Origin: a virus
Lineage: Duplodnaviria > Caudoviricetes
Virus record (IMG/VR): IMGVR_UViG_3300035491_000281
Strand: one strand, 5' to 3'
Length of the DNA stretch: 64,000 bases
Shown here: positions 9,081 through 51,361 of the stretch, one piece after another
Layout of the letters: each line of letters opens with the position of its first letter
How positions within the stretch are numbered: the first letter of the stretch is position 1
The notes under the pieces: model-generated
Databases searched by the model: none
Told to the model about the DNA's origin: nothing
What the model saw: only the letters and a program-made list of their open reading frames with translations
Position numbers and translations under genes: made by a program

Positions 9081-9467
9081 ATGACCCAGACCCTCACAGC
9101 CCCAGCCCAGATCTTCGTCTACGACGTCGGTCAGGTGCTCGCTCTGCTCGAACCTCAGTTGGAGATCATCGAGACGGACTACCAGGGGCGGCGCTATAAC
9201 CAAGAACACCTCATCGATCTCTTTCTCACGCTGGCCGTAGACAGTTTCGAGATCGTTACTGTGCGGGAGTTTGATGAAGCCAGCCACCCGACCGCTTTGA
9301 CCAATACCCTCCGTCAACTGGGACGGGCGATCAGCCAGCTCTGGGACCTGCTCTGGTTCCCCCCGGATTGCTCCGGATGTGAGGTGCTGCTCAAACGGGT
9401 TCGGTCGACACTCTGGGTAGTGGTGTTTGATCCTCACCGCCTGCAACCTTTCACTCGACTTTATTAA
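9081..9467 (+). CDS. Hypothetical protein
   Basis: 128 aa, first gene of a tightly packed + strand cluster. Confidence 0.6.
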   Translation: MTQTLTAPAQIFVYDVGQVLALLEPQLEIIETDYQGRRYNQEHLIDLFLTLAVDSFEIVTVREFDEASHPTALTNTLRQLGRAISQLWDLLWFPPDCSGCEVLLKRVRSTLWVVVFDPHRLQPFTRLY

Positions 9468-9474
9468 GGTGTCA

Positions 9475-10470
9475 ATGTCCATGGAACAGAGTTTTATCGT
9501 GCTGGAGACCACAGGGTATCTCAATACCCTGATCGAGGCGTCACATGATTGCGCACGCGAAACGGTCACAGCCCTGAAACCGATTACCCGGCAAGTCTTT
9601 GTCGACGGCAAAGTCGAAATCACCTACGACGATGAGGAGATTCCGCTGGAGCCGATCAAACCGCTGAGCCGACCCCGGGCCATGAAGTTGCTGGCAGCGC
9701 TGGTGGAAGAATGCGTGAGTCAGTACGTGCGTTACCGCATGGCGCGGTCACCGCTACCGGCGATCGCTGCAGCCCTGCGCGACACCGTCACCCCTAGCGG
9801 TTACGACTACGTGGTGGCGGAGCATTTCCTCTGCATGCCGGAAGTCGACAGCATGGTCATTGAGATGACCCGGCAGATCGGGTTCCACGTTGCCGAAGAC
9901 ACCTGGCGGCAGTGGGACATTGCGGCCACCCCGTACATGATCGGCCTGATTGGCGGGCAGGACTACCGCATTGCTGAATGGGAGCGGGCACACGGAGTCG
10001 ATCCGGATGAGAACATGAAGCTCACCGTGGATATCAGTGCTGTGGTCAACTACCTGCATACTCAGCTCACCGGTCATTACGGCGAAGTCGCGCGGAAGAT
10101 TCCGCTGCGGGCGGTGGTGATGGACGCAATCCATCGCCGCTTCCCAAAGGTGGAGTTCCAGCCGTTCGAAGCCGTGCCGTTTGATCTGTTCGCCAGTCTG
10201 GGGATTGAGAGTTACGAGCTCTTCTACGAGAAATTCATCCATGAAGTCATGGATGCGTTTGGCGTGACCTTCCTCCTGACCCGAATCGATCGGACCATTC
10301 ATTACCGCGCCGAGATCACGGGTAATTTTACGCTGGTGTTCTATGCTTCAGAACGCCCGAAGAACGAAGAGGCCCTGTACTTTCATGAACTCAAACAGTC
10401 CATTGAACGTGGCGACTGGGTTCCTGAGCGCGAACGCCGCCGACTCGACGACTACGAACGCACCCACTAG
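9475..10470 (+). CDS. Hypothetical protein
   Basis: About 331 aa, AAGGTG SD, typical codon usage. Confidence 0.7.
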   Translation: MSMEQSFIVLETTGYLNTLIEASHDCARETVTALKPITRQVFVDGKVEITYDDEEIPLEPIKPLSRPRAMKLLAALVEECVSQYVRYRMARSPLPAIAAALRDTVTPSGYDYVVAEHFLCMPEVDSMVIEMTRQIGFHVAEDTWRQWDIAATPYMIGLIGGQDYRIAEWERAHGVDPDENMKLTVDISAVVNYLHTQLTGHYGEVARKIPLRAVVMDAIHRRFPKVEFQPFEAVPFDLFASLGIESYELFYEKFIHEVMDAFGVTFLLTRIDRTIHYRAEITGNFTLVFYASERPKNEEALYFHELKQSIERGDWVPERERRRLDDYERTH

Positions 10471-48426: not shown

Positions 48427-48816
48427 CTACACCCGGGTAAGTTCCTGATGGTGACGGGCCCGGTCGTAGACCCAGGCTTTTTGTTCGTCCGTCAACTGCA
48501 GGTAACCGGTTTCGTGAGAGACTGTGGCGTAGAAACAGACCTTGTTGATCTTGGCGTTGATGCGACCCCGAATCTCGGGTTCTGGGGTTTGGAAGGGGAA
48601 CAGGTGGTCCCCCGCCAATAGAGTCGTAAACTCCGGCTGGTCACTGAGCATCCGCGCCACCCCCGCTAGGTCGGCCAACTCGTGTTGGAGGGCCACTGCC
48701 GCCGGCTCGCCATGAAAGTAACTGTCGCAGCCGAATTGGGCTTCCTTCAACGCCTCTTTCGCGACCTCGTTGGCTTCCTCGGCGAGTTTGATGAGTAGGT
48801 ATTGCAGAAGGTTCAT
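48427..48816 (-). CDS. MazG-like NTP pyrophosphohydrolase
   Basis: KLAEEANEVAK...QHELADL matches the ExxE...ExxD metal-binding pattern. Confidence 0.65.
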   Translation of the reverse strand: MNLLQYLLIKLAEEANEVAKEALKEAQFGCDSYFHGEPAAVALQHELADLAGVARMLSDQPEFTTLLAGDHLFPFQTPEPEIRGRINAKINKVCFYATVSHETGYLQLTDEQKAWVYDRARHHQELTRV

Positions 48817-49283
48817 TGGGGGATTGCTCCTTTCATTTCCAGTACCCGCTTACCCAAGGCGTCGTTCTCGATCGACAAACAGTACTCGGTTTCGTTCACC
48901 ACCATGAGCGCGCTACCGTGGACGCTGTCCCACGCCAGCAGCATAGTCCCGTTCGGGTTTTCGTCGGTGGTTACATTCTTTTGGTTCAGGTTGTAACTTG
49001 CCATCAGAGCCGCTGCATTTGCGCGGATGCGTTGGCGACGTGGGCTGTCTTTTTCCTGCCCATCCAACCAAGCGTGGTACAACGCTTCGAACTCGGGGTG
49101 TTCCCAGTACAGATTGCAGAACAGGTTTTTCTTGACCCAACCGTCTACCGGGGTGGGACTACGTACAGTCCTCAAGAACTCGTCTTCCACCCGACTGAAC
49201 AGCTCGTATTCAGGTGTGTCGACCGGCGGGCGCGTCAGCGTCGCCCGCACGTAAACGTTCTTTTGTGGGATTTGCGACAGCAT
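48813..49283 (-). CDS. Hypothetical protein
   Basis: Coupled to both neighbours in the polymerase operon. Confidence 0.6.
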   Translation of the reverse strand: MLSQIPQKNVYVRATLTRPPVDTPEYELFSRVEDEFLRTVRSPTPVDGWVKKNLFCNLYWEHPEFEALYHAWLDGQEKDSPRRQRIRANAAALMASYNLNQKNVTTDENPNGTMLLAWDSVHGSALMVVNETEYCLSIENDALGKRVLEMKGAIPQ

Positions 49284-49589
49284 TCAGTAAATTCCCTCGT
49301 TCAGTAATTCGGCTAACGCCCGGGCCTGCGACACCGGCCCACTGGCAAACATATCAGACAACACGCCATCAAACTCCAGCGCCCGCTCCGCTAACTCCCG
49401 CATGAGGCTTGGATTCTCTCCGGCCCACTCACGCCAGAGGGCTTTGTATGCAACATAAAGGTCTACCGACGCATCACGCGCCGGCTTCCCTTTTCCTTCC
49501 CGCCACGAGTCTTGACCGAGGACCCCCCAACCCTTAACTCGCAGTTGGTAGTGTTCCTCGATCGAGTACCCGTCCGAGAGTTTAGCCAC
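49284..49589 (-). CDS. NADAR/YbiA-like domain protein (frame open upstream to 49679; may be a -1 frameshift extension of the polymerase)
   Basis: (FSAL)VAKLSDGYSIEEHYQLRVKG resembles NADAR FS..F..DG..Y...EHYYQA.K. The fold is inferred. Confidence 0.5.
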   Translation of the reverse strand: MAKLSDGYSIEEHYQLRVKGWGVLGQDSWREGKGKPARDASVDLYVAYKALWREWAGENPSLMRELAERALEFDGVLSDMFASGPVSQARALAELLNEGIY

Positions 49590-51361
49590 TAAAGCCGAGA
49601 ATCGCCGATCGCCCTTGGTAGAGCATTCGTAGCCTCCGCGTCGTTGGAAGCGGTAGCTGGCTTTTTTAGTACGTGTTCCTCAAAACCCGCCAGCAGCTGG
49701 TCCAGACTCGGCGCGCCGAGAATCTTCTGGCAGATTTCCACCGCGTTGACGCGCCCGCCGGTGAGGTTCACCCCCACTTCCCGCCGATGGTGTTCCGAGA
49801 TCCCCTGCATCCGCGAGAACTCCATCATGCAGGTTTCCCGGGCGATGTTGAGCAGCTGTGAAACGTTGGGGTAAGTCGAGACAATATCCAAGTCTGCGAC
49901 GTGCGCAAAGATCAACGTGCGGTAATCAGGGTACTCCTTAACGCAGGGTAGACCCGTCGGCCCGGCCATGAATGACGGTAGCGTCACAATCCAATCGTCG
50001 TGACCGATCACGTGCTCGTCGAGTTCGTCGACCATCTGATCGGAACTGGAACCGATCACACAAGGCTCTGGACGGTTGAGGTACCAGAAATGCATGTCGT
50101 CGCAGAGTCGTTTCGGGTTGGAGTTGAAGTTCTTGTAGTCCGAGTTCTTCGAACTGGTGGTGATCTTCGACGCCAGGTCGTTGGTCTTCTCGTCCAGCAG
50201 CTCCAGTGAAATACTATCGAACACGTTATACACCCCGTATTCGATTTTGTATTTCTCCTGCATGACTTCGTGCCAACGCAGCCCCGAGAGGTGAGCGGTA
50301 GCGGCGAACTTGAGCTTGGTTATCTTCAGCTCTTTTTGCAGGATATAATCCAACGCGTACGACGAGTCCTTCCCGTCGGTCAATCGCAGTAGGCGATACA
50401 CCGGTAGCGCATCGATGCACTGGAAGCTGGCCGGGTGGGTCACCCAGTTCCAACGGTCCTCGATGTTGATCGACATGGTCTTGCCCGAGGCCGTCACTTT
50501 TTGTGACTGTCCACGGCGGTACTCGAAATACCGATACTGGGCGGGAACCCGCGGGTCGGAGAACACCGTGGCCGGATCGATGTTGGCCCGTTCCAGGGTA
50601 CGCACCATGTTGGTGATATCGAAGTCCATATTCCAGAAGGTGAAGAACTCCGGCTGCCATTCGTGTAGGGCATTGAGCATCCCGATGACGATCTCAGCTG
50701 GGGTGTCGACCACGAACACTTCCAGCTGGAGTTGGCGTTTATCTAACCACTCGCCAATGTGCTCCCGCGCCTTGGCGTGGGTTTCGGCCACCGGGTCGGC
50801 AATGTCGGCGACCCAGCTGCGCAAGTAGAACAAACGGGCGTTGCGCTTACATGTGACCGAGGCGCAGATGATCTCCCCTTCCTTGGAATGGACGTTGGTC
50901 TCAATGTCACCGGCGGCGACTTTGTTCAACGAGATCAACCCCGGCCAACGGTTACGGTATTCGGCCTTGTAGAGTGCTGCGCTGGTGATATCGGTGCCGT
51001 ACAGGTAAGGACTCCGACCGAGTCGCCGCAGGGGTGGGTTCGGACCGGCGGAATAATCACCTAAGGCGCGGGCAACCGCCTTAGGTAGTTCGAGTTGGGT
51101 ACAGGTGTATTTCTGGCAATTCTTTTCCAGCTCGTAGTCTTTCTTGTCCTTGTGGGTCTGTCGCCCTTTGTGGGTGATCCAATACGGGCGCTTGTAGTCT
51201 TCCTTGAAACGGAGGTTCGGGATGCGCCGGCCGTCTTTGAGGTGAATCATTTCCTTGACCACGAGCATGTCGTGGTTGGAACCATCCTGCGCCCGGACAT
51301 AAGTGAGGTGCTTGGGTTCGATCCCGAGCACGTCTTCGGACTTAAAATTCTGTTGGGTCAT
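49589..51361 (-). CDS. Family-B DNA polymerase, exonuclease plus motif-A subunit (phiKZ gp82-like)
   Basis: ExoI AGDIETN, ExoII FWNMDFDI, ExoIII YNVFDSI and motif A ADLDIVSTYP. Complements the 14054 subunit. Confidence 0.85.
   Translation of the reverse strand: MTQQNFKSEDVLGIEPKHLTYVRAQDGSNHDMLVVKEMIHLKDGRRIPNLRFKEDYKRPYWITHKGRQTHKDKKDYELEKNCQKYTCTQLELPKAVARALGDYSAGPNPPLRRLGRSPYLYGTDITSAALYKAEYRNRWPGLISLNKVAAGDIETNVHSKEGEIICASVTCKRNARLFYLRSWVADIADPVAETHAKAREHIGEWLDKRQLQLEVFVVDTPAEIVIGMLNALHEWQPEFFTFWNMDFDITNMVRTLERANIDPATVFSDPRVPAQYRYFEYRRGQSQKVTASGKTMSINIEDRWNWVTHPASFQCIDALPVYRLLRLTDGKDSSYALDYILQKELKITKLKFAATAHLSGLRWHEVMQEKYKIEYGVYNVFDSISLELLDEKTNDLASKITTSSKNSDYKNFNSNPKRLCDDMHFWYLNRPEPCVIGSSSDQMVDELDEHVIGHDDWIVTLPSFMAGPTGLPCVKEYPDYRTLIFAHVADLDIVSTYPNVSQLLNIARETCMMEFSRMQGISEHHRREVGVNLTGGRVNAVEICQKILGAPSLDQLLAGFEEHVLKKPATASNDAEATNALPRAIGDSRL
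49631..49681 (-). other. Candidate -1 programmed ribosomal frameshift cassette
   Basis: GAGG (49681-49678), 10-nt spacer, in-phase A_AAA_AAG (49667-49661), then hairpin AGCUACCGC/GCGGAGGCU (49658-49631). Confidence 0.55.

Follow-up and report, generated by a model that had tools for sequence, protein, structure and literature searches.

The gene for the N-terminal subunit of a split family B DNA polymerase (DNAP-N) in a phiKZ-like phage probably undergoes programmed -1 ribosomal frameshifting, by which a predicted NADAR-fold domain would be appended to a fraction of the polymerase molecules. The gene lies within a 64,000-nucleotide (nt) stretch of the IMG/VR virus record IMGVR_UViG_3300035491_000281 (Duplodnaviria; Caudoviricetes), hereafter the window, which is part of a 231-kb phiKZ-like (chimallivirus) genome. 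Frameshifting is favoured because the slippery heptamer is kept among relatives, the start-less -1 frame is under purifying selection, in-frame fusions of polymerase and domain exist and NADAR structures top the fold search made with the domain. A preliminary description of the window, made from its letters alone, had proposed a -1 frameshift joining the polymerase to a NADAR-like domain, and the same lines of evidence now lend support to that proposal. The elements concerned are the following.

51394-49589, minus strand: DNAP-N gene, encoding the N-terminal subunit of the split family B DNA polymerase (homologue of phiKZ gp82), 601 amino acids (aa) in the 0-frame
49682-49680, minus strand: TGA that closes the -1 frame and forms the 5' boundary of the entry window; four sense codons separate it from AAA AAA
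49667-49661, minus strand: slippery heptamer A_AAA_AAG (CTA AAA AAG), the proposed -1 shift site, in phase with DNAP-N
49284-49661, minus strand: -1 frame extension encoding the NADAR-fold domain (phrog_9995 family; P0001), 125 codons followed by TGA at 49286-49284
49587-49589, minus strand: GTG overlapping the polymerase stop (TAGTG), the first canonical start of the -1 frame

The 601-aa protein matches phrog_3011, annotated as 'DNA polymerase' (E 5.6e-227), and the gene has DNA and protein matches to phiKZ gp82, 201phi2-1 gp144 and the Noxifer polymerase. When its translation is read by eye, the exonuclease motifs and motif A (DLDIVSTYP) are present and motifs B and C are absent, which is the motif pattern of phiKZ DNAP-N (bioRxiv 10.64898/2026.09.30.755723); by these features the protein is assigned to the chimallivirus split PolB DNAP-N type. 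The phiKZ DNA polymerase is composed of three subunits, namely DNAP-N (gp82), DNAP-C (gp50) and Rhc (gp155), of which gp82 and gp50 were expressed recombinantly (bioRxiv 10.64898/2026.09.30.755723). An Rhc homologue is encoded in the window's genome as a 500-aa RNase H protein with 48.6% identity to a phiKZ-type ribonuclease H. For DNAP-C, a Pfam DNA_pol_B search of the same genome gave no match and no gp50 query was made; a missing Pfam match plausibly fits so divergent a protein.

Around the slip site the polymerase frame reads GAG GAA CAC GTA CTA AAA AAG CCA, and it terminates at TAG 49591-49589, which has one G in common with the GTG at 49589. The claim that the -1 frame stays open for 125 codons to 49284 with no start before this GTG was confirmed: between the upstream TGA (49682-49680) and GTG 49589 there is no ATG, GTG or TTG, and reading by eye found no CTG, ATT, ATC or ATA in that interval either. 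Initiation at the GTG (open reading frame, ORF, 49284-49589) gives a product of 101 aa without the family-invariant residues D18, R20 and F21. The window available for entry into the -1 frame spans roughly 10 codons. In-phase X_XXA_AAG heptamers are rare: the window's 43 long ORFs, 17,470 codons in all, contain only three, and about 0.002 would be expected by chance in the entry window; the presence of A_AAA_AAG there exceeds chance. Furthermore, the heptamers are built from disfavoured codons both in the window, in whose genome CTA makes up 5% of Leu codons and codons ending in A 11.5% of all codons, and at the phiKZ locus, where 14% of codons end in C and AAG accounts for 29% of Lys codons. 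A shift at this site would yield a trans-frame fusion of 703 aa (578 + 125), which corrects the earlier estimate of about 690 aa. Another in-phase heptamer of the window, a C_CCA_AAG at 10143-10149 on the plus strand inside the long ORF 9421-10467, was rejected as a slip site since its -1 frame is shut after 11 codons, and it was used as a negative control.

The start-less frame encodes a protein family of its own. P0001 matches phrog_9995 (E 2.8e-44), with profile positions 2-123 of 124 aligned to P0001 residues 3-124; the family therefore starts at the slip site and not at the GTG. A profile search covering 1.84 billion representative proteins retrieved 795 representative relatives of P0001, and most of the best 150 of these 795 align from profile positions 1-8. 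Across 45 aligned family sequences, D18, R20, F21, K43, K57, Y72, W76, L90, D103, Q112 and A113 are invariant and E35 is nearly so; D18, R20 and F21 precede V25, the residue of the GTG codon, as do the predicted first strands of the fold in the AlphaFold2 (AF2) model. Two earlier expectations, namely that the conserved N-terminus begins upstream of the GTG and that only the frameshift product would hold the whole domain, are thereby upheld. Ratios of nonsynonymous to synonymous divergence (dN/dS) are 0.07-0.17 where computable, including across the 21-22 codons before the GTG column, dS being mostly saturated between lineages elsewhere. The -1 frame is intact across 120-125 codons in every relative examined, and on these comparisons it is under purifying selection despite having no start. 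The low dN/dS and the invariant residues before the GTG indicate that this stretch is translated, and with no start available there, the -1 frame would have to be entered within the window of about 10 codons. That the -1 ORF might instead be a decaying remnant, lying next to a coincidental heptamer, is scarcely credible. The absence of a start and of a Shine-Dalgarno (SD) sequence of its own, and the absence of an annotated gene from this region in several deposited phiKZ-type genomes, would suit decay, but a remnant would hardly retain an intact frame in all relatives, the family invariants, a dN/dS of about 0.1 against saturated dS and a heptamer maintained in three compensating forms.

The junction was compared in eleven deposited phages (twelve records: fnug, phiKZ, 201phi2-1, Noxifer, Viktualia, RVTF4, Phabio, PhiPA3, PS119XW, HPP-Temi, Psa21 and D6) and in IMG/VR contigs. 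All relatives whose domain lies in the -1 frame have X_XXA_AAG in phase among the final 33 codons of DNAP-N; these relatives amount to 19 loci besides the window, some of them from one phage. Because the lineages share ancestry, the counts do not represent independent trials, a limit mitigated by the saturated dS and the three heptamer variants. The slip site is homologous in place, lying about a dozen residues past a conserved LDxLL segment. A_AAA_AAG is found in the window, Noxifer, L004, L005/6, L007, L026 and L027; C_CCA_AAG in phiKZ, fnug, PA7, 201phi2-1, Viktualia, Phabio, PhiPA3, PS119XW, HPP-Temi, L024 and L029; and G_GGA_AAG, directly before TAG, in L028. The residue encoded just before the heptamer varies (L, A, G, N, S, P or V) and the third base of its codon always equals X (CTA, GCA and GGA; AAC, TCC, CTC, GCC, CCC and GTC; CTG), which reads as a covariation signature with no protein-level reason for its fixation. 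Amino acid and synonymous sites neighbouring the heptamer have diverged among the relatives. Where the two frames overlap, the -1 frame holds the conserved motif and the 0-frame tails vary in length and sequence, so that the tails past the slip look like a by-product frame; the linker from heptamer to domain is 2 to about 14 residues long.

The distribution of heptamers also bears on a shift at the RNA level, in which the phage RNA polymerase would stutter on A6 and add one A. The window site does have six consecutive A, and one extra A would give nearly the same protein. Nevertheless, the relatives with C_CCA_AAG or G_GGA_AAG hold only three A at the homologous site, and what is conserved is the X_XXA_AAG phase pattern rather than a homopolymer, so that one mechanism for all favours ribosomal slippage. 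Moreover, efficient transcriptional slippage usually needs runs longer than A6. Transcriptional slippage is accordingly considered very improbable.

No canonical start precedes the conserved motif in the window, phiKZ/fnug/PA7, Phabio, HPP-Temi, L004, L005/6, L007, L024 and L026-L029, and in L004 and L005 the codon corresponding to the window's GTG cannot serve as a start. Start codons have been gained or lost even within one genus (PS119XW versus HPP-Temi), whereas the heptamer is constant wherever the frame relation is -1. Several phiKZ-type records have no annotated gene in this region, and in the phiKZ RefSeq record the annotation is limited to a C-terminal fragment of 38 aa. If the reading is right, the domain gene is overlooked or cut short in the annotated genomes of these phages. 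These observations are relevant to termination-reinitiation, which would produce a 101-aa protein from the TAG/GTG overlap (49591-49587), or else to the use of a non-canonical start, with no frameshift in either case. Reinitiation could draw on the TAGTG overlap of the window, on the stop-start overlaps at the junctions of relatives (TAATG in PhiPA3 and GTGA in PS119XW) and on three phages with an independent GTG or TTG start, in which the domain can work unfused. However, the GTG product would be without D18, R20, F21 and the first strands of the fold, the GTG is not conserved as a start and the entry window has no near-cognate start in the by-eye reading. Further, the N-terminal part before the GTG is under purifying selection, and starts come and go among relatives that keep the heptamer wherever the domain is in the -1 frame. 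Production of the domain without frameshifting is hence judged improbable, if less so than decay or transcriptional slippage.

Several observations weigh against a programmed frameshift. A start is present at the domain N-terminus in 201phi2-1, Viktualia and PS119XW (GTG) and in PhiPA3 (ATG), the heptamer being retained, and in RVTF4, Psa21 and D6 the domain lies in the +1 frame with its own GTG or TTG and no heptamer. Because some relatives hold such a start or a +1-frame gene, the free-standing form is viable and fusion not obligatory. The literature searched, on phiKZ ribosome profiling among other subjects, offers no mass spectrometry or ribosome-profiling support for the trans-frame protein. 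The weakness of the candidate stimulators, of which the window has two, belongs on the same side.

49681-49678, minus strand: SD-like GAGG, a possible stimulator, exactly 10 nt 5' of the heptamer
49658-49631, minus strand: hairpin of 8/9 pairs (one G-U pair, one A-A mismatch) with a 10-nt loop, of doubtful role

The heptamer, the GAGG and the hairpin were all recovered on the minus strand as the preliminary description had reported them, and RNAfold reproduces the hairpin (61 nt past the heptamer give -22 kcal/mol, z = -2.5). The hairpin begins 2 nt past the heptamer, where the usual spacer between heptamer and structure is 5-9 nt. No consistent SD-like element was found at the spacing of the GAGG in the A_AAA_AAG relatives, whose junctions were read by eye. 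Downstream structure is mostly unremarkable in single-sequence folds of seven relatives (z from +0.8 to -1.7), with the exception of Phabio, and RNAalifold on ten C/G-type junctions gives a consensus of -1.95 kcal/mol with one compensatory pair. A conserved downstream RNA stimulator was rejected on the strength of these single-sequence folds and the RNAalifold consensus. The parallel drawn earlier with the three-part dnaX-type signal therefore holds in part: the heptamer is conserved, in three variants, but the GAGG and the hairpin are specific to the window, the SD-like element is not conserved and the spacer is 2 nt. The heptamer is the conserved element of the signal. In relatives with C_CCA_AAG or G_GGA_AAG the 0-frame stop falls 0-1 codon past the heptamer, and a heptamer next to a stop is the 'shifty stop' arrangement of classical E. 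coli frameshifting work. As a separate observation, Phabio (L013:2499-2567) has a very stable hairpin pair directly after CCCAAAG-TAG (-31.6 kcal/mol, z -4.5), which is not common to the other C-type junctions.

Programmed -1 frameshifting of this kind has well-known counterparts. The tau and gamma subunits of E. coli dnaX arise by a programmed -1 frameshift on A_AAA_AAG, the same in-phase heptamer as in the window and likewise in a replicative polymerase subunit gene that gives two isoforms; dnaX has an SD-like element and a 3' hairpin, as has the window with its SD-like element 10 nt upstream. The dnaX shift truncates the protein (gamma ends almost at once), whereas the window shift would add a 125-aa enzyme-like domain, and, unlike in dnaX, the SD-like element and hairpin of the window are not conserved and the hairpin spacer is 2 nt. 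Closer in layout is the phage lambda G/GT tail-assembly chaperone frameshift, which takes place on G_GGA_AAG and has positional equivalents in other tailed phages. There, too, ribosomes slip shortly before the upstream ORF ends and so append a C-terminal domain, the position of the site is conserved though the heptamer varies (L028 has exactly G_GGA_AAG) and no strong conserved stimulator is needed. The genes are unrelated, being devoted to tail assembly in lambda and to replication and putative counter-defence here, and, unlike for lambda G/GT, versions with an in-frame fusion, an in-frame stop or a free-standing gene coexist in this clade. The proposed mechanism thus has precedents in dnaX and lambda G/GT, but this instance is described in none of the papers found and in none of the genome records examined.

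Natural fusions of the domain with polymerase subunits provide further support for the frameshift. A metagenomic contig encodes P0098 (698 aa) next to a phiKZ-type major capsid gene; this protein is homologous to DNAP-N (26% identity across 544 columns, E 1e-50) and continues in frame into the domain (53% identity, E 2e-35). In P0042 the last ~85 residues of a closer polymerase (59% identity) are joined in frame to the domain; the polymerase of that contig is interrupted at a point further upstream. At L031:2206-2240 (a 112-kb IMG/VR contig, G001:C1) the domain is in the same frame as the polymerase past a single TAG (TAG CTG AAG) and has no canonical start before its conserved motif; stop-codon readthrough and CTG reinitiation are candidates for this junction. 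Reassignment of TAG in that contig was rejected, since treating TAG as a sense codon brings no notable gain over the ORFs of the standard code. P0034 and P0055 (L041:6001-7812) have the domain at the N-terminus of an RNase H-clamp protein that is homologous over both domains to the 500-aa RNase H protein of the window's genome, and we equate this partner, by its homology, with Rhc (gp155), the third polymerase subunit. Physical linkage of the domain to the replicative polymerase complex has thus arisen repeatedly and by different routes. Taken across the clade, the sequences point to a junction solved variously, by -1 slippage on three heptamers, by in-frame fusion, past an in-frame stop, by fusion to Rhc or as a free gene.

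Other arrangements were observed beside these fusions. On a metagenomic phiKZ-like contig (L036:2990-3010) a TGA, together with a switch into the -1 frame, breaks DNAP-N in the palm, giving calls of 482 and 236 aa. The latter extends without a change of frame from polymerase motif A through into the NADAR-like domain, and the break may reflect an indel introduced in assembly, a genuinely split gene or a further recoding site. P0039 (1150 aa) has two matched stretches of the domain together with an RNase H. P0016, P0054 and about 35 or more further matches of the profile search are giant proteins (2,000-6,100 aa) with the domain inside them; P0016 and P0054 have no Pfam domain at E <= 1e-4. Other fusion partners are DUF4326 (P0031) and DUF488-N3a (P0003). 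A protein atlas search for the domain returned 'hypothetical protein' clusters only.

The likeness of the domain to NADAR enzymes comes from its predicted structure. The AF2 model of P0001 is confident (predicted local distance difference test, pLDDT, 92; predicted template modelling score, pTM, 0.87), and a fold search of 48,161 solved chains, independent of Foldseek, placed three NADAR structures at the top: 8bat of Geobacter lovleyi (Z 8.2), 2b3w, which is E. coli YbiA (7.3), and 8bau of Phytophthora with ADP-ribose (6.8), the next chain scoring 3.8. Foldseek likewise ranked 8bat first (probability 0.97), and searches of the AlphaFold database (AFDB) and viral structure libraries gave weak NADAR, YbiA and DUF4326 rows besides. 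The match is one of a predicted model with solved structures. Sequence methods do not detect NADAR: Pfam gave no match for P0001 at E <= 1, none of 45 family members matched NADAR (PF08719) at E <= 10, a PDB profile search found no NADAR and hhalign of the domain against E. coli YbiA found nothing. The NADAR-like identity proposed at the outset hence stands as to fold and not as to sequence.

Some residue-level resemblance can nevertheless be seen by eye, where GDRRFSAL of the domain resembles GDFSNF of YbiA and DG..IEEHYQLRVK resembles DG...SEHYFQAQK. In DarG1-type NADARs and T4 AdfN, the SEHYFQAQK-type helix motif carries the catalytic Glu and Lys, which are E36 and K43 in T4 AdfN and E88 and K95 in the E. 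coli C7 NADAR, with a further acidic residue at E125 or D171 (PMC11543638, PMC11825919). The candidate catalytic set of the domain is E35, K43 and D103, a match made by eye whose spacing is ambiguous by one residue. NADAR enzymes are de-ADP-ribosylases and include the DarG1 antitoxins, T4 AdfN (gp30.3) and YbiA. The fold predicted for the domain is theirs, and the domain likewise has a helix motif in which Glu, Gln and Lys are conserved, as well as D103, an acidic residue conserved in its C-terminal half. These enzymes differ in that the matched NADAR chains are 160-219 aa long against ~120 aa for the domain, and in being free proteins, whereas the domain of the window is a predicted polymerase appendage. 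Overall, the model suggests a NADAR-fold domain, possibly a distant NADAR, rather than an established member of the family.

According to the proposed mechanism, host ribosomes translating the DNAP-N mRNA would reach CUA-AAA-AAG, where in a fraction of passages the two Lys-tRNAs would re-pair one base back on A-AAA-AAA and translation would go on in the -1 frame for 125 codons. The major product would be the 601-aa DNAP-N, ending 23 codons past the slip site, and the minor product a 703-aa DNAP-N with the C-terminal NADAR-fold domain; both the slippage and its rate are what we infer from the sequence. The domain would not be makeable whole otherwise, because its conserved N-terminal third precedes the first start codon. 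If this is so, the replicative polymerase of the model jumbo phage phiKZ and of its relatives exists in a further isoform that annotation has missed, and current structural and biochemical work uses the short form only. A replicase would also be added to the few well-supported bacterial and phage frameshift genes, as a rare case of recoding that attaches an enzyme-like, probably counter-defence, domain to a polymerase.

As to function, the domain is tentatively proposed to be an N-glycosidase that strips ADP-ribose off DNA bases, the lesion in question being of the DarT1 type on guanine; this is a possibility to which we give somewhat less than even credence. The proposal is drawn from the fold, the repeated fusion to polymerase subunits and the precedent of AdfM, a nucleus-localised DarG2-like macrodomain of chimalliviruses that counters DarTG2 (PMC13309987) and shows that nucleus-forming phages require de-ADP-ribosylation within the phage nucleus. 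AdfM differs from the domain of the window in having a different fold and in being encoded by a separate gene with no recoding (PMC13309987), and the NADAR-like domain could, by analogy, be its counterpart for DarT1 (guanine) lesions. At E <= 0.01 the Pfam Macro model (PF01661) matched nothing in the window's own genome. The domain may instead act on other substrates or play a non-catalytic part, and the recurrent partnership with RNase H would fit a role in primer or R-loop processing.

Tethering to the polymerase would deliver the domain into the phage nucleus and onto the single-stranded template at the fork. More doubtful still, and on balance unlikely, is the further idea that the frameshift serves as a device for both dosage and delivery, placing a base de-ADP-ribosylase on a fixed fraction of the polymerases, in the phage nucleus and at the single-stranded DNA that DarT1 targets. 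Under that idea the replisome of nucleus-forming phages would be self-repairing against an abortive-infection toxin. If the frameshift itself is real, it suggests how a small enzyme could pass into the phage nucleus, which is selectively permeable, namely as the passenger of a protein that is imported; the fusion would also be a candidate for chimallivirus resistance to DarTG1, complementing the action of AdfM against DarTG2.

The literature searched holds no description of this recoding in phiKZ or chimalliviruses. The main text of the October 2026 structural preprint on the phiKZ polymerase contains none of the terms 'frameshift', 'NADAR' and 'isoform' (bioRxiv 10.64898/2026.09.30.755723), and PHIKZ082 is not listed in the Grad-seq supplements.

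Irregularities of the polymerase gene itself were seen in some relatives. An HNH endonuclease ORF lies between two pieces annotated as 'DNA polymerase' in HPP-Temi (L017:1-2501), and in PhiPA3 (L015:94-2498) a gap of ~300-580 nt separates the annotated end of the coding sequence (1920) from a final piece of 85 codons; both interruptions of DNAP-N look like intron or homing-endonuclease insertions. At L005/L006:536-3064 the stop-to-stop frame of the polymerase is 842 codons long, against about 600-725 elsewhere, which suggests an N-terminal extension or an insertion. The following genes lie immediately downstream of the domain in the window.

48813-49283, minus strand: 156-aa gene of no assigned function, its ATG overlapping the domain stop (TGAATG)
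48427-48816, minus strand: MazG-like nucleoside triphosphate pyrophosphohydrolase, 129 aa

The 156-aa product has no match in Pfam or PHROG, and the 129-aa product matches phrog_4856 (E 3e-11).

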